From positions 6,496,001 through 6,560,000 of the forward strand of contig CBDBDQ010000005.1 in assembly GCA_965203905.1 (NCBI GenBank): DNA of 64,000 nucleotides. The letters are read 5' to 3'. The notes below the pieces were generated by a model that was not told the origin of the DNA, made no database searches, and saw only the letters and a program-made list of their open reading frames with translations. The stretch is from Spirochaetia bacterium. GTDB taxonomy: Bacteria > Spirochaetota > Spirochaetia > SZUA-6 > Bin103. The position numbers and the translations under genes are program-made. Shown piece by piece: positions 27,995 through 33,720 of this stretch (within the stretch, counting starts at the first letter, position 1; every line of letters starts with the position of its first letter).

Positions 27995-28264
27995 GTCCGG
28001 GAACTGCGGGCGCGGGGCGTGCCCACCAACCCGATGCCGGTGTTCCGGTCGGAAGCAGCGCTGGTCGACACCCCGTGGCTGCTGCTGGACATCTCTCACC
28101 ACGGCATCATCCTGTTCGATCCGCGCCAGGTGCTGCACGCCAAACTGGCGGCACTCCGGAGGCGGCTCGCCGAATTGGGATCGCGGCGCATCGAGTTGGC
28201 CGACGGCTCGTGGTACTGGGACCTCAAGCCGAACCTGCGCCCCGGAGAGATGATCGAGCTGTGA
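27995..28264 (+). pseudogene. 5'-truncated MNT nucleotidyltransferase of an MNT-HEPN pair
   Basis: LLLDI..GIILFD..LGSRR..WYWDLKP..GEMIEL; N-terminal catalytic motif absent. Confidence 0.75.
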
Positions 28265-28280
28265 TCATGCGGGCTTGGCG

Positions 28281-28545
28281 ATGAGCAACGGCGAGCGCGG
28301 CCGCAAACTGCTGGCGGCGTCGCGCGAGCACCTCGCGGAGATGGAGGGCGCGCTGCACCGCCACTCCTGGAACATCGCCGTGCGCCGCGCGCAGGAAGTC
28401 GTGGAGCTGGCACTGAAGGCGGTGCTCACCTACCTGTGCATCGACTATCCGAAGGTGCACGACGCCGCCGATCTGTTCGTGGCTACGCTTGCCGCCCGGC
28501 AGATGGTCCTGAGTGAGGTGGAGGCGGCAGACGTGGTCGCTGAAC
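28281..28545 (+). pseudogene. 3'-truncated HEPN-domain protein
   Basis: WNIAVRRAQEVVELALKA..YPKVHD; resemblance ends near 28545. Confidence 0.8.
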
Positions 28546-28606
28546 GGAGCGAAAGACAGTTGACGTTGCGCAGGGTGCGGCGTATCCATTATGTGGAGTT
28601 GTATAC

Positions 28607-28623
28607 GTGCAAACGGTAACCGT
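28607..28623 (+). pseudogene. Separated 5' end of the UPF0175 antitoxin gene
   Basis: GGAG RBS then GTG CAA ACG GTA ACC GT; rejoined to 32950 gives MQTVTVSLRLPESE. Confidence 0.8.
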
Positions 28624-28640
28624 TATTGCGTTGCGCGCCC
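28624..28640 (+). repeat. Left terminal inverted repeat
   Basis: 16/17 identity to reverse complement of 32928-32944; weaker match for 14 more bp. Confidence 0.9.
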
Positions 28641-28710
28641 AAGGGCGGGGTGAGGGCGTACCGGTTGCAGTGACGATGACGTAGGCGGAGGAGCGACAGG
28701 GGCGTAAAGT

Positions 28711-28750
28711 GTGAAGCCCGCAGCAGGTAAATGCTGCGGGCTTCACTTTT
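28711..28750 (+). terminator. Intrinsic terminator inside left end of the transposon
   Basis: Perfect 15-bp stem GTGAAGCCCGCAGCA/TGCTGCGGGCTTCAC, 6-nt loop, TTTT. Confidence 0.8.
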
Positions 28751-28804
28751 AGGCGGCCTCGGCGAGCGGAAGACAACCGCCCGCCGAGGCACGAGAGGCA
28801 GCGA

Positions 28805-29629
28805 GTGTCCGAGGGTGCAACCGAGGCACACGCGCTCCCGTTCGCGACGACGAACTACCAGGCGGATCAGGACGGAACCTTGCGCGCCGTGCTGCCGTCG
28901 CGGTGTGTCTACGCCACGGGGGAGCAGACGTGTGCCATCTTCGTCGATCATTACCGCGAGCGCAAGACCGGGCCCCGCTATCCGCTAGCGGTGGTGGGGT
29001 GCGGGGTGCATGGGGGCCGGCGCTACACCCTGTATCCGCCCGGACACTACCCCTACGGACGGGTGGCGGTGGTGCCCTACAGCGCAGGCGGAGACGTGCT
29101 GTTGGACGCAACCGGCAAACGACCGCAGTGGCAGGTGACGCTGTTCGGGGCCGCGCAGGATGCGAAGCAGGGGAAGCTGTGGCCAGCCGAGCAGCACTGG
29201 TGGCAAGCGTTGAGTACGCCCTGCCGGCGCATCCAGGGACGGCGCCTGGAGCTGGCCGGTCGGTTGACCGGGGTCAGCCCGGAGTTGGACCAGCGGCAGC
29301 GGGAGCAGATCGCGACGCGCTTGGGAGTGGCGACCATGACCGTGCTCTGGGGAGCGCGCTGCTGGGGGCGCAGCTGGCGCAGCCGCGGCGTAGCGATCAT
29401 GGCGGTGTTGCTGGCGCTGGCGGTCAGCGCGACGCTGGGGGAGCGCATGGGTGCGGCTGGTGCGGTCAGCGACCTGTGGGGGCCACCGCGCCCGCGGCTG
29501 GTGGCGCGCTGGGAGCAGGCCGGCCAGAGCTGGGTGGTGGCCGCGAGCGGTCGTTCAGCAGCGCGGGAACAGGGGGTTGTCGACCACCTTCGGGGACGGG
29601 CGCCCCCGGCCACGAAAGCGCTTATTTGA
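28805..29629 (+). CDS. Transposon ORF1, Cys/His-rich hypothetical (loosely DUF6431-like)
   Basis: C-x8-C...C-x2-H, YTLYPPGHYPY; HTH-like QIATRLGV; first ORF inside the TIR. Confidence 0.65.
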   Translation: MSEGATEAHALPFATTNYQADQDGTLRAVLPSRCVYATGEQTCAIFVDHYRERKTGPRYPLAVVGCGVHGGRRYTLYPPGHYPYGRVAVVPYSAGGDVLLDATGKRPQWQVTLFGAAQDAKQGKLWPAEQHWWQALSTPCRRIQGRRLELAGRLTGVSPELDQRQREQIATRLGVATMTVLWGARCWGRSWRSRGVAIMAVLLALAVSATLGERMGAAGAVSDLWGPPRPRLVARWEQAGQSWVVAASGRSAAREQGVVDHLRGRAPPATKALI

Positions 29630-29658
29630 AGCCTCCCGTACGGCGCTACGGTAGGCGC

Positions 29659-31065
29659 ATGAATGATTCGTCACGTCCCCCGTTACCGATCTCGGCTACC
29701 GCGCTGCTGCGCTACCTGGTGATCGCCGAGATGGAGGCCCTGGTGTTGCGCGGGTGGCCTGCGGGCGCCGCGGTACGCAAGGTTGCCCGCGCACCGCGGA
29801 TCGACCTGGACGGTCGTCCGGTGCGGATCAGCGTGCGTACCCTGCAACGCTGGCGCGCGGCCTGGGCGAGCGGTCGGCTCGCCGCCCTGGAGCCGCAGCC
29901 GCGCACCCGCACCGAGACCTCACTGGCGCTGAGTCCGCAACTGGTCACCTTTCTGCGCACCGAGAAGCAACGTGATGTGCGCGCCTCGGTGCCGGAACTG
30001 GTGCGGCGGGCGCGCGAGCGCGGCATCATCCCGGTCGACGCCAAGATCGATCGCACCACGGTGTGGCGCGCCTGTCGGCGAATGGGCCTGCCGACGCGTC
30101 AGCGACCACACAAACACGAAGCGGACACGCGTCGCTGGCGCTATGCCGAGCGCATGCAGTGCGTGCTTGCCGACGGCAAGCACTTCCGCGCCGGCGCAGC
30201 GCGGCTGCGGCGGGTGGCGCTGTTCTTCCTCGACGATGCCACCCGCTACGGCCTGGAGGTGGTGGTGGGCACCGCGGAGTCCAGCGAGCTGTTCCTGCGC
30301 GGCCTCTACGAGGTGGTCATGCACCACGGCACTGCGGATCTGTACTACCTGGACAAAGGCCCGGGCTTCATCTCCAAGGACACCCTGGCCGTGGTCCAGG
30401 GCGGCCTGGGCACCTTGCTGATTCACGGCGCCACCAGGTATCCCGAGGGCCACGGCGCCATCGAGCGCTTCCATCGCACCGCTTACGATCAGGTGCTGCG
30501 TTCCTTCGACGGTGCCGCCGACGTGGACCCCGCTTGCCAGGCACTCACGCTGCGCCTGCGCCACTTCCTGAACCGCTACAACGACACCCCGCACGAGACG
30601 CTCGGCAAGGACACCCCGCGCCAGCGCTGGGAGCAGGGACGGGAGTTGCGCTTTCCCACCGACGAGGCCGATCTGTATCGCCGCTTCGTGGTGCGCGCCA
30701 TGCACAAGGTCTCCAACGATCACGTCATCAAGGCCGCCGGTCGGTTGTGGGAAGCGCCGCGCCGCAGCGCCCGCTGTTGGGTCGAGGTGGCGCGCCACGT
30801 GCTCGACGGGCGGCTGTGGGTTCAGCACCAAGGGCGCATGATCGAGCTGGCCGAGCTGGATCCCCACGCCAACGCGACCTCACCGCGCGGCTCCGGCAGC
30901 GCGCCACAACCGACCGCCGACGAGGACGGCGAGGAACTCCCCGCCACCGCGGCCGGCATCGCCTACGCCAACGACACCCGCCCGCTGGTCGACCCCGACG
31001 GCGGCTACCGCGACCCGCAGGACGACCAACAGGACGACCAACACGTCCAGGAGCAGCAGCCATGA
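29659..31065 (+). CDS. Mu/IS481-like DDE transposase
   Basis: SVRTLQRW HTH; ADGKH, FLDDATRY, YLDKGPGF, GAIERFHRT; YNDTPHETL. Confidence 0.92.
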   Translation: MNDSSRPPLPISATALLRYLVIAEMEALVLRGWPAGAAVRKVARAPRIDLDGRPVRISVRTLQRWRAAWASGRLAALEPQPRTRTETSLALSPQLVTFLRTEKQRDVRASVPELVRRARERGIIPVDAKIDRTTVWRACRRMGLPTRQRPHKHEADTRRWRYAERMQCVLADGKHFRAGAARLRRVALFFLDDATRYGLEVVVGTAESSELFLRGLYEVVMHHGTADLYYLDKGPGFISKDTLAVVQGGLGTLLIHGATRYPEGHGAIERFHRTAYDQVLRSFDGAADVDPACQALTLRLRHFLNRYNDTPHETLGKDTPRQRWEQGRELRFPTDEADLYRRFVVRAMHKVSNDHVIKAAGRLWEAPRRSARCWVEVARHVLDGRLWVQHQGRMIELAELDPHANATSPRGSGSAPQPTADEDGEELPATAAGIAYANDTRPLVDPDGGYRDPQDDQQDDQHVQEQQP

Positions 31066-31865
31066 GCCACGACCTCAGCCCACTGGGCTTCCGCAAGACC
31101 CCCTTTACTCGCGAGTTGACCGTGCGCGAGTGCTTCCCGCTCGAACCTCAGGCCCAGGTCGCCGCCGCACTCACCGCGGCGGTGCAGGAGCGCATGAGCG
31201 CCGCCCTCATCGCTCCCGCCGGCACCGGCAAGACCGTCGCCTTGCGCATGCTCGTCGCCACCCTGCCGGAGGTGCGCTTCCAGGTCCACTACGTCAAGGT
31301 GACCGGCCTCTCCAAGCGTGACCTGTGCAAGGAAATCGCGGTCGCCTGCGGCCTCTCTCCCACCGGGATCTATCCCGCTCTGGTGCGCAAGCTGCAGGAC
31401 GCGTTCGAACATACCGTCAGCGACGGCATGCGCCCCGTCATCCTGCTCGACGAAGCCCATGATCTGCGCCCCGAAGCGTTGGCCATGTTGCGCGTCCTCA
31501 CCAACTTCACAATGGACAGTCGCCTCGTCGTGTCCCTCGTGCTCGCCGGCCAGCCACTCCTGAAACTGCTGCTCCGGCGCCCTGAACAAGCCGCCATCGC
31601 GCAGCGCCTGGCGCACTACGCCGAACTGCGCCTGCTGTCCCGCGATGAGACCCGCGCCTACCTCGAACATCGCTGCACCCTCGCCGGCGCTCGCACCAAT
31701 CCCTTCGACGACGACGCTCAGGAAACCATCTTCGAAATGAGCCGCGGCAACCTGCGTGCCATCGACCGCTTGGCCCTGGCGGCGCTGCACCACGCCGCCA
31801 AGTCTTCTCACACCACCGTCAGTGCCGGCGACGTGATCGCCGCGCGCAAGTACCTGTGGCCATGA
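31062..31865 (+). CDS. ExeA/TnsC-like AAA+ ATPase
   Basis: Walker A APAGTGKT, Walker B ILLDEAH, LAGQP, SRGNLRAI; ATGA overlap with transposase. Confidence 0.92.
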   Translation: MSHDLSPLGFRKTPFTRELTVRECFPLEPQAQVAAALTAAVQERMSAALIAPAGTGKTVALRMLVATLPEVRFQVHYVKVTGLSKRDLCKEIAVACGLSPTGIYPALVRKLQDAFEHTVSDGMRPVILLDEAHDLRPEALAMLRVLTNFTMDSRLVVSLVLAGQPLLKLLLRRPEQAAIAQRLAHYAELRLLSRDETRAYLEHRCTLAGARTNPFDDDAQETIFEMSRGNLRAIDRLALAALHHAAKSSHTTVSAGDVIAARKYLWP

Positions 31866-32800
31866 CCACACCGCTGCCCACCGTTCCGGTGCATGCCATC
31901 GATCCCCAGCCCGACGCTCCCCAGTGGCTGGTGCGCGACCTCTGGACCACCGCGGCTGTCGGCGTGATCGGGGGCAGCCCCAAGGTTGGCAAGTCCTGGC
32001 TCGGCCTTGACCTCGCCGTCTCGGTCGCGTCCAGCACCCCGGCCCTCGGGCGGTTCCCGGTCGAGGCCACCGGCCCCGCCCTGGTCTATCTCGCCGAGGA
32101 TGCTCTGCCACGCGTCCGCGACCGTGTCGCCCACTTGTGCCGCCACCGCGGTTTGGATCTGGCACGCCTCGATCTGCACGTCGTCACTGCTGACCGCTTG
32201 CGCCTCGATACCGAGCGCGACCAGCTCGCTCTCGACCAGACCGTGCAACGGATCCGCCCGGCACTACTGCTGTTGGACCCTCTGGTCCGACTTCATTCCC
32301 TCGATGAGAACAGCGCTTCAGACATCTCTTCTCTGCTCGGCTTTCTGCGCGCACTCAACCGCCGCTATCAACTCGCTGTGGTCCTCGTCCACCACCTGGC
32401 CAAGCGCTCGCGCCGCAATCTCGGCCAGTCCCTGCGCGGCTCCTCCGATCTGCATGCCTGGACCGACTCCGCCTGCTATCTGGTGCGGCGTCCCGACGAC
32501 CGTCTGCAACTCACCGTCGAGCATCGCTCCGCTCCCGCTCCAGACCCCCTGCTGTTGCGCCTCTCAGGCGGCGCCGACCAGCCCCTCTCGCTGCTCGTCG
32601 ACAACGCTGCCGCCGCCCCGCCTCCCCCGCTCGCCGAGGCGGTGCGCGCCACGCTCCGCAGCGCCGGCCAGCCGCTCTCCAGGACCGCTCTGCGGCAACG
32701 CTTGCGCGTCAACAACGCCCGTCTCGGTCTCGCCCTCCAAACTCTCCAACAGCACGGCCTCGCCGTCCGCGGCCCCAACGGCTGGCACCTGCCGGCCTGA
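31862..32800 (+). CDS. RecA/RepA-like (AAA_25) ATPase with C-terminal winged helix
   Basis: GGSPKVGKS, YLAED, LLLLDP, DENS, VLVHH..K, LRGSS; ATGA overlap with upstream ATPase. Confidence 0.88.
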   Translation: MTTPLPTVPVHAIDPQPDAPQWLVRDLWTTAAVGVIGGSPKVGKSWLGLDLAVSVASSTPALGRFPVEATGPALVYLAEDALPRVRDRVAHLCRHRGLDLARLDLHVVTADRLRLDTERDQLALDQTVQRIRPALLLLDPLVRLHSLDENSASDISSLLGFLRALNRRYQLAVVLVHHLAKRSRRNLGQSLRGSSDLHAWTDSACYLVRRPDDRLQLTVEHRSAPAPDPLLLRLSGGADQPLSLLVDNAAAAPPPPLAEAVRATLRSAGQPLSRTALRQRLRVNNARLGLALQTLQQHGLAVRGPNGWHLPA

Positions 32801-32927
32801 CCGGCACCGTCGCCTGCCTACTCGCTCTCGTTCCGCCATTCCCGCGTTCCGCACCAGGGACGCGCTCGGAACGGAACGACCACCGTACACACTCCGTGCC
32901 AACTATCGTGCAACTCGCCTCGGCTCA

Positions 32928-32944
32928 GGGCGCGCAACGCAACA
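32928..32944 (-). repeat. Right terminal inverted repeat
   Basis: Ends in CA, followed by ACCGT. Confidence 0.9.
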
Positions 32945-32947
32945 ACC

Positions 32948-33232
32948 GTGTCGCTGCGACTGCCGGAATCCGAGGTGTCTCGGCTGGAGAGCACCGCTCA
33001 GGCTATGGGTGTCGACCGCTCCACCCTGTTGCGGTGGGCGGTCCGACGAGGCACAAGCGCGCTCCTGCTCGAACGTGCGTGCGACGCGTACCGGCGCGGG
33101 GAAGTAACCCTCTCGCGGGCCGCCGAGATTGCAGGCCTGAGCCTCCGTGACATGATTCTCCGGTTGCGCGATCAGGACGTAGTGTTGAACTACGGTCCGG
33201 AGGACTTGGCCGCGGACCTGCAGCCGCTTTGA
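32948..33232 (+). CDS. UPF0175-family antitoxin (body after insertion)
   Basis: DRSTLLR; AYRRGEVTLSRAAEIAGLS. Confidence 0.85.
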   Translation: MSLRLPESEVSRLESTAQAMGVDRSTLLRWAVRRGTSALLLERACDAYRRGEVTLSRAAEIAGLSLRDMILRLRDQDVVLNYGPEDLAADLQPL

Positions 33233-33720
33233 CCGTCGTCGCCGCTGCAAGTCCGCTGATTTTTCTGGGAAAGATCCGCCGGCTTGACCTGATTCATCGC
33301 GTCCTGGGAGGCGACGTCGTCGTGCCGCAGCAGGTTCGAGACGAGGTGTTGGCGCGTCCGCTCGACCCCGCCGAGTCCGATGAACTGCATCGGTTCCTGG
33401 CGGCGGTACGCATGGAACGTGTCGACAGCCCGCGAGCCTTTGCCGCCGGCATGAGCCGCGCCGACAACGCGGCCATGACGCTGGCCGTCCGACTCAAGGC
33501 AGACCTGCTGCTCGCCGACGACCGGACCGTTCGCCGCCTGGCTGTCGTCGAAGGCATTCGACCGCTCGGCACGCTCGGAGTATTGCTGCTGGCGCTGCGG
33601 TGGGGACTGGTCGACCGGGCCGAGGTGCGCCGGCTGGTCGACGACCTCGTGCGCTCCCATGGCTTCCGCATCGGGGTGGAGCTGTATGCGGCGGTGATTC
33701 GCGAAATCGACCGGCCCTAG
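33229..33720 (+). CDS. DUF3368 PIN-domain toxin
   Basis: ASPLIFLGKI, VPQQVRDEV, LLADD, GTLGVL, GFRI. Confidence 0.88.
   Translation: MTVVAAASPLIFLGKIRRLDLIHRVLGGDVVVPQQVRDEVLARPLDPAESDELHRFLAAVRMERVDSPRAFAAGMSRADNAAMTLAVRLKADLLLADDRTVRRLAVVEGIRPLGTLGVLLLALRWGLVDRAEVRRLVDDLVRSHGFRIGVELYAAVIREIDRP

Follow-up and report, generated by a model that had tools for sequence, protein, structure and literature searches.

Phage Mu, Tn7 and their relatives are models of regulated transposition and the basis of CRISPR-guided insertion tools. Mu borrows the helicase of its host, and to our knowledge all known members of the Mu/Tn7 group leave replication or repair of the joined product to the host. The named group closest to the element studied here is that of the 'TnsBC elements', defined in a preprint as relatives of Tn7 in which TnsB is followed by one or more AAA+ TnsC proteins and both TnsA and TniQ are lacking; elements with TnsB and TnsC that lack TnsA and TniQ are stated there to transpose replicatively, as Mu does (10.1101/2024.11.13.623437). 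We analysed a stretch of 64,000 nucleotides (hereafter the window) of the genome of a Spirochaetia bacterium (assembly GCA_965203905.1, contig CBDBDQ010000005.1, positions 6,496,001 to 6,560,000 of the forward strand), in which a first, sequence-only reading had recognized a four-gene DDE transposon with two different ATPases. This transposon occupies positions 28624-32944 of the window, 4,321 bp between the outer tips of its terminal inverted repeats (TIRs). Its four co-oriented open reading frames (ORFs), all on the + strand, are ORF1 (28805-29629), the transposase gene tnpA (29659-31065) and the genes of an AAA+ ATPase (AAA22, 31062-31865) and of a helicase-like AAA_25 ATPase (AAA25, 31862-32800). 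Our preferred interpretation, to which we give a probability of about 0.45, is that it is a Mu-like replicative transposon that brings its own helicase together with a site for loading it.

The element falls within the definition of the TnsBC elements, with a TnsB-like transposase followed by a TnsC-like AAA+ protein and neither TnsA nor TniQ, and it shares with them 5-bp duplications, TGT/ACA-type tips and an expected Mu-like replicative transposition; this likeness is one of definition, not of placement in a tree. It differs from them in having no recombinase, whereas the two-ended TnsBC elements described there carry a serine recombinase and others are one-ended and telomeric in Streptomyces. 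The accessible part of the preprint mentions no zinc-ribbon ORF1 and no RepA-like helicase with a repeat (10.1101/2024.11.13.623437).

With Tn7-like elements the transposon has in common a TnsB-type transposase, a TnsC-type regulator, a 5-bp duplication, the tips and predicted multiple transposase sites per end; membership of Tn7 was rejected because TnsA and TniQ/TnsD are absent. Tn5053/Tn402, whose gene set we take to be tniA-tniB-tniQ-tniR, likewise combine a DDE transposase and an AAA+ helper with a 5-bp duplication and short TIRs, but the present element lacks TniQ, TniR and res, has a helicase-like gene in addition and carries ORF1 upstream of the transposase gene. It was not assigned to that group either, no recombinase domain being found in any ORF. 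Phage Mu offers the best solved match of AAA22 (MuB), a domain found in relatives of TnpA (Mu-transpos_C), the same 5-bp duplication and a forked intermediate that needs a helicase, as in the mechanism proposed below, whereas the element is 4.3 kb long and encodes a helicase-like protein of its own. A Mu-like transposable phage was rejected in view of the size of the element and its four genes, with no phage structural or lysis genes. Full-text literature searches returned no description of the four-gene layout with helicase and repeat; supplements, ISfinder and TnCentral lay outside these searches, so that an unnamed listing is possible. The earlier suggestion that the second ATPase may mark an uncharacterised family agrees with this outcome.

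The 312-aa AAA25 protein (31862..32800) consists of a RecA-fold core similar to RepA of RSF1010 and a C-terminal winged helix, and its start codon overlaps the stop codon of AAA22 (ATGA). It matches Pfam AAA_25 at 4e-33. Its profile retrieved RepA (1g8y) at 2.4e-12 as the sole strong relative of solved structure, with RadA next at 0.02, in agreement with the RecA/RepA-like assignment made from the sequence. In 21 sequences down to 45% identity, K44 of Walker A, E79/D80, D139 of Walker B, D148-E149-N150, H177/H178 and R192-G193-S194 are invariant, and the winged-helix-like segment is conserved as well. AAA25 thereby shows the sequence hallmarks of RepA/DnaB-type helicases, namely the Walker A Lys, the Walker B Asp, the His pair, Arg-Gly-Ser and the RecA fold. 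The Walker A, Walker B and HH motifs align with those of RSF1010 RepA. The latter, however, is a plasmid replication protein without a winged helix, which is loaded at oriV by a separate initiator, whereas AAA25 has a fused winged helix and is encoded in a DDE transposon beside a repeat. Compared with seven other copies, AAA25 is the most constrained of the four gene products, with a dN/dS of 0.09-0.31, against 0.15-0.33 for AAA22, 0.23-0.40 for TnpA and 0.30-0.44 for ORF1. The host genome contains a further AAA_25 gene (G000:C4:55535-56125, 117.7 bits), near the end of a 57-kb contig; it was missed by tblastn with the element protein and thus belongs to another subfamily.

An iteron-like inverted repeat follows the AAA25 gene at 32830..32877 (no strand assigned), with two GTTCCG units and a degenerate copy, a 15-nt spacer and CGGAACGGAAC. 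We propose that it may serve as the binding or loading site of the AAA_25 protein. The strict repeat pattern occurs four times in the 8-Mb genome, each time in one of the four copies of the element. A regular-expression search found a GTTCC/GGAAC repeat between -53 and +150 of the AAA_25 stop codon in 18 of 19 AAA_25-bearing elements, the nineteenth deviating by one mismatch, and after none of six three-gene elements that lack AAA_25.

Species-representative genomes were searched with the ORF1 profile, which gave 28 loci in metagenome-assembled genomes (MAGs) labelled as many phyla. The contigs of most loci measure 2-7 kb, which is to be expected where a repeat interrupts assembly; the hosts represented by long contigs include genomes labelled Spirochaetia and Gemmatimonadales. 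The sequence continues past AAA22 in 19 loci, 18 of which have the order ORF1-TnpA-AAA22-AAA25 with AAA_25 directly next. The exception (L064) has both TIRs and no AAA_25, and its transposase is broken, as in a decayed copy. The remaining nine loci are three whose contigs end before the AAA_25 position and six fragments. The start/stop overlaps are kept in the relatives, and the four-gene operon is thus shown to be translationally coupled and conserved across many MAG lineages. The sequence-only reading had named the absence of AAA_25 from most homologous elements as an observation that would speak against it; such absence is not seen within the family that shares the TIRs and is seen in many distant relatives.

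These distant relatives include many three-gene elements, composed of an upstream Cys-rich ORF, a TnpA about 30% identical to that of the window element and AAA22, one of which, 3,183 bp long, has eight or more identical copies within one genome. AAA_25 is an add-on to this older three-gene core and not part of the minimal machinery, as it is absent from so many of them. Relatives of the host contain other backbones, whose TnpA and AAA22 are 23-34% identical to those of the window element, and in some of them AAA_25 has been added at the same position; the TnpA tree requires at least three changes of AAA_25 presence. The AAA_25 of backbone B nests within that of lineage A, the window family (support 99/98), and the DNA homology between the two extends from the AAA_25 start codon to 85 bp past its stop, the repeat included. 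In lineage D, the stretch between the left tip and the AAA22 stop shares about 80% DNA identity with three-gene elements; AAA_25 and a GTTTCC-type repeat come next, and the whole is enclosed by a CGCAG duplication. D-type elements were found in three genomes. Finally, a C-type backbone carries a D-type AAA_25 with a D-type repeat. In these exchanges the type of the repeat tracks that of AAA25 and not that of the backbone. Comparison of the sequences thus shows that AAA_25 and its repeat have moved together between transposon backbones, as would a portable cassette.

The four-gene layout was not found in annotated plasmids. A search of 72,556 plasmid records gave TnpA relatives of 24-30% identity at best, and in the three examined an AAA/ExeA-family ATPase gene lies just downstream and AAA_25 is lacking; the AAA_25 protein gave five weak matches, at 26-30% identity.

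TnpA (29659..31065, 468 aa) comprises helix-turn-helix (HTH) domains, a DDE (rve) core with invariant D172, D232 and E269, a TnsB/Mu-type beta-barrel region and an acidic C-terminal tail. Single-sequence matches to rve_3 and HTH models are weak, and its catalytic core also scores against IS3 models. A profile of 20 TnpA sequences matches TnsB of a type V-K CRISPR-associated transposon (7svw) at 4.1e-12 over residues 224-451, which cover the catalytic and barrel regions, and distant TnpA relatives exceed the Pfam cut-off for Mu-transpos_C. The anatomical claims of the sequence-only reading, which had called the transposase 'Mu/IS481-like', were all confirmed. The IS481 model NF033577 is the best NCBIfam match of TnpA, at 95.2 bits against a cut-off of 224, and the element has a four-gene operon, not a single ORF, so that membership of IS481 was rejected. 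AAA22 (31062..31865), the start codon of which overlaps the tnpA stop codon (ATGA), has Walker A residues G54/G56/K57 and the Walker B residue D130. It matches Pfam AAA_22 at 4.7e-21, and its profile matches MuB (8xvb) at 3.4e-9, the best among solved structures, and ShTnsC (7m99) at 1.5e-7 over residues 26-264, nearly its full length, which supports the earlier description as a TnsC-like AAA+ ATPase. IS21 also pairs a DDE transposase with an AAA+ helper, and IS481 has a DDE transposase, but neither has four genes or a helicase. IS21 membership was rejected, as AAA22 matches other AAA models but not IstB_IS21 (PF01695) at E<=0.01. Structure prediction of AAA22 paired with AAA25, in a run without controls, gave a score of 0.00 against a mark of 0.32, which speaks neither for nor against a complex.

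From these data we propose the following scheme. TnpA would bind the terminal and inner GTTGC(G/A) repeats, and the MuB/TnsC-like ATPase would capture target DNA and activate strand transfer with a 5-bp stagger. Nick-and-join chemistry of the Mu type is suggested by the transposase/ATPase pair, by this stagger and by the lack of a TnsA-like nuclease or a resolvase: searches of Pfam and NCBIfam gave no match to a TnsA-type nuclease, a resolvase/recombinase or IstB in any of the four ORFs, and a further gene would not fit into the 4.3 kb of the element. As neither a TnsA-type 5'-end nuclease nor a resolvase is encoded, the product would be a Mu-like forked (Shapiro) intermediate that needs replication. 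The RepA-like ATPase would then use its winged helix to bind the repeat, which lies some 70-115 bp inward of the right end, and load there as a replicative helicase, by which the replication step would be freed from the helicase-loading proteins of the host; such independence could account for the occurrence of a single family in MAGs with labels from many phyla. Helicase loading is proposed because the helicase motifs are intact, the gene is strongly constrained and translationally coupled, and the repeat travels with it. A broader formulation, which we hold a little more hesitantly than the scheme itself, is that of a DDE transposon family owning part of a replisome: a cassette of RepA-type helicase, winged helix and loading site would have been plugged repeatedly onto Mu/Tn7-type backbones and have made the replication step independent of host helicase loaders, and ORF1 would represent a new zinc-binding class in the place of TniQ.

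Several points weigh against this interpretation. Helicase activity, DNA binding and a role in replication are all inferred for AAA25 from its sequence, and the link between its winged helix and the repeat is drawn from their co-occurrence. The three-gene relative that reached at least eight identical copies without a helicase indicates that the latter is dispensable for the reaction; since three-gene relatives multiply without it, the helicase would enhance transposition or free it from host loaders and not take part in the essential chemistry. Simple insertions with clean target-site duplications (TSDs) dominate in the host genome, and they fit a replicative mode only if host recombination resolves cointegrates, because the element has no resolvase. 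The exchange of AAA25 between backbones whose TnpA and AAA22 are about 30% identical argues against tight contacts with the transposition proteins, and an independent function would be equally compatible with it. Lastly, the phylum labels of short MAG contigs may reflect binning errors, few hosts being represented by long contigs.

Alternatively, the RepA-like protein and the repeat could form a small plasmid-type replicon, with an excised circle, a figure-eight or a cointegrate replicating alone in an episomal or copy-out stage. A helicase with a winged helix and iteron-like repeats recalls an initiator and its origin, the cassette forms a complete, movable unit, and the TnpA core also scores against models of IS481 and of IS3, a family that uses copy-out-paste-in transposition. 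We nevertheless regard this possibility as unlikely: the element encodes neither primase nor polymerase, and among solved structures TnpA and AAA22 come closest to TnsB and MuB/TnsC and not to IS3-type enzymes. Moreover, no junction of right end to left end, as in a circle, was found among the contig joints of four metagenome runs, although contigs drop rare forms.

Slightly less probable again is that AAA25 acts as an ATP-dependent DNA-binding switch on the right-end repeat, which would regulate transcription, end choice, self-immunity or target choice, for instance of replication forks. The conserved winged helix with a cognate repeat near one end and the weak scores of RecA-fold ATPases such as RadA are consistent with a switch, and transposons of this kind use ATPases as regulators, according to the preprint on TnsBC elements (10.1101/2024.11.13.623437). 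Every RepA helicase motif that could be checked is invariant, however, the best match by far is a true hexameric helicase, and a regulator of the MuB/TnsC type is already present. Of the two roles that the sequence-only reading had offered for the second ATPase, replicative transposition is thus favoured, and target selection is retained as the lesser possibility. That AAA25 is passenger cargo aiding the host or another element, for example in defence or repair, with no role in the spread of the transposon, is improbable: many distant relatives multiply without the gene and it is exchanged like a cassette, but its position is constant with its start codon overlapping the AAA22 stop, within a selfish element present in several copies it has the lowest dN/dS of the four genes, 18 of the 19 informative loci retain it and the one that has lost it is a decayed copy, no further cargo occurs in the elements, two of which owe their extra DNA to nested insertion sequences (IS), and it has its own cis repeat and was recruited repeatedly at the same position, all of which argues that it is not passively carried.

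The ends of the element were as first described. The left TIR, TATTGCGTTGCGCGCCC (28624..28640, + strand), contains two GTTGCG units and pairs with the right TIR (32928..32944, - strand), the reverse complement of which is TGTTGCGTTGCGCGCCC, with 16 of 17 positions matching; an imperfect repeat continues to 36 nt at 78%. The TIR is near-invariant across the family, reading T[AGC]TT[GA]CGTTGCGCGCCC in related loci from many MAGs. In the window copy the right tip is TGT and the left one TAT, several relatives having TGT at the left as well. Further inside are a left repeat GGTTGCAG (28663..28670, + strand), with TTGCA, shared by 8 of the 10 left ends compared, at element position 42, and a right repeat GTTGCA (32909..32914, - strand), with TTGCA 32 positions from the right tip in 7 of 10 right ends; the spacing is thus unequal between the ends (42 versus 32). 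These inner repeats are likely second transposase-binding sites. The exact 5-bp duplication ACCGT flanks the element at 28619..28623 and 32945..32949 (no strand assigned to either copy).

The 8-Mb genome contains four copies of the element, at 100%, 100%, 95% and 88% identity, bounded by the same tips and flanked by duplications of their own: ACCGT, ACCGC, CCAGG and one 4/5 pair, ACCGT/ACCGG. Four copies with shared tips and separate duplications indicate that the pattern of the element is not due to chance. Three of the four copies are at ACCGN (window 28619; C5:6647759; C5:1195377). A target consensus ACCGN was dropped, as duplications in other genomes differ from it (CGTGC, GCCTC, AGGGC). 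Among 14 loci with both ends outside the host genome, TSDs are perfect in three, match at 4/5 in two and are lacking in nine, for which chimeric assembly or rearrangement is possible. In G001, a complete 7-Mb chromosome (loci L037, L040, L042, L043 and L055), five of six copies compared have intact tips without matching 5-bp duplications, and the sixth has a 4/5 match; recombination between copies or intramolecular replicative events would fit the missing duplications. A match between flanks of different copies, L038 right with L043 left, may be due to chance.

Besides these other copies, an empty site was found. In public metagenome contigs from two runs (X2 and X3), 28617 is connected directly to 32944 (6 ambiguous letters), and the 4,326 bp left out correspond to the 4,321 bp of the element plus 5 bp; the contigs of the two runs are equal, and the runs probably represent a single data set deposited twice. 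In other runs, contigs pass from the element into different flanks exactly at 28623/28624 and 32944/32945. A second empty-site joint, in run X1, with 10 other letters and a shorter side of just 20 letters, was disregarded as too weak; X1 is possibly the source sample itself. With multiple copies, two of which are 100% identical, with TSDs and with an empty site, the element is mobile; it is autonomous and recently or currently active. Contigs from an RNA library (X17), 90-95% alike, cover parts of all four genes; they come from relatives, and DNA may have been present in the library, so that they are not taken as a sign of transcription. Judging from runs with sequence near-identical to window positions 28100-33500, whose labels are sponge, coral-reef, biofilm and marine metagenome, the carrier bacteria appear to be marine and host-associated.

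A number of copies are themselves interrupted. The 88% copy (locus L076, G000:C5:7723712-7729707), the TnpA gene of which has an in-frame TAG, contains a nested insertion of 1,680 bp after element position 94, with positions 92-94 present on both sides, encoding a 461-aa IS110-family transposase (DEDD_Tnp_IS110, 4e-21). In L044 an IS3-type transposase gene (377-2966; rve, 1e-19) lies between the left end and ORF1, bringing the element to 6.7 kb. Extra DNA in these two copies was considered as cargo, a reading that was rejected, both insertions being nested IS. Another family copy (L024, G005:C3:781000-797000) has some 3.5 kb of foreign DNA within its transposase gene, between query residues 232 and 229. 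In G020, two C-type transposons (L068:1320-2937 and L071) have their left end interrupted by the same 1.6-kb element, and this genome also has two inverted B-type copies (L065, G020:C2:508000-527999), in which AAA_25 is cut at the same point with the first 41 or so codons kept.

ORF1 (28805..29629, 274 aa) has an N-terminal beta-rich Cys/His domain, with C34, C43, C66 and H69, and a helical C-terminal half. The protein has no match in Pfam, NCBIfam or PDB sequences, and the ESM Atlas gave nothing usable. A word-indexed search found 236 relatives, and 836 representative clusters were retrieved at E<=0.001. In 96 ORF1 sequences C43, R51, R53, G56, C66, H69, Y77 and P78 are invariant, as is C34 among closer relatives, in line with the Cys/His-rich character noted earlier. 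An AlphaFold2 model built from the 96-row alignment reached a pLDDT of 88.5 and a pTM of 0.83; one from 32 close sequences (pLDDT 46.8) was unusable. Foldseek comparison of the better model with the PDB and BFVD gave no match at E<=0.001, with a best TM of about 0.2. As for TniQ, neither ORF1 and its 96 relatives in sequence nor the ORF1 model in fold matched it, and ORF1 is not demonstrably TniQ. The model and the conserved residues point to a zinc-binding protein with a new fold, which might be the DNA-binding regulator or the target selector of the element. An hhalign comparison of the ORF1 profile with its counterpart in the three-gene element gave an E value of 5.6e-4 and a probability of 30%, with the Cys/His motif alone aligned, and the same comparison with the counterparts of backbones B and C gave no signal; the B counterpart matches DUF6431 at 2.7e-5, below the cut-off. 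Homology of the upstream genes across backbones is therefore unproven.

Between the left end and ORF1, a hairpin with a 15-bp stem, a perfect inverted repeat followed by TTTT, is found at 28711..28750 (+ strand). RNAalifold analysis of 15 elements gave 12 consensus pairs, four of them with compensatory double changes. This terminator-like hairpin was not listed by a consensus terminator scan, and the matches that Rfam gave at this left-end hairpin were all sub-threshold; it likely blocks outside transcription from entering the operon. A second hairpin (28756..28790, + strand), with 14-nt arms that are 93% complementary, ends just before the Shine-Dalgarno sequence GAGAGG of ORF1, and by eye its position is kept in relatives. 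A promoter scan found none.

The element is inserted inside a toxin-antitoxin cluster (28019-28619 and 32948-33720). A host gene with a HEPN domain (28275..28619, + strand; Pfam HEPN, 3.2e-10) lies outside the element and ends at the insertion site; the short ORF before it resembles, by eye, the end of a nucleotidyltransferase partner. Downstream are a gene for a UPF0175/RHH antitoxin-like protein (32948..33232, + strand; Pfam) and a DUF3368/PIN-like gene (33229-33720). The sequence-only reading had the insertion interrupt a host gene that is restored in frame on removal of the element. Once the element and one TSD copy are removed, the UPF0175 frame is indeed open across the junction, with a GTG at 28607 preceded 8 nt upstream by GGAG. 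It is likely, though not certain, that the insertion cut the UPF0175/RHH gene in its sixth codon, with the 5' end at GTG 28607, as GTG 32948 is a possible alternative start.

For further work the window copy is well suited: it is intact, the host genome contains a second, identical copy, and its empty site is documented. Three-gene and four-gene sister elements in related genomes would provide a natural experiment. With the ORF1 fold and the helicase cassette, the family brings two uncharacterised parts to this group of transposons. If our interpretation is correct, a compact and widespread relative with its own helicase and loading site would represent a new solution to the replication or repair of the joined product. 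It would also make the distinction between transposons and plasmid or phage replicons less sharp, and might account for the spread of the family among distant bacteria.

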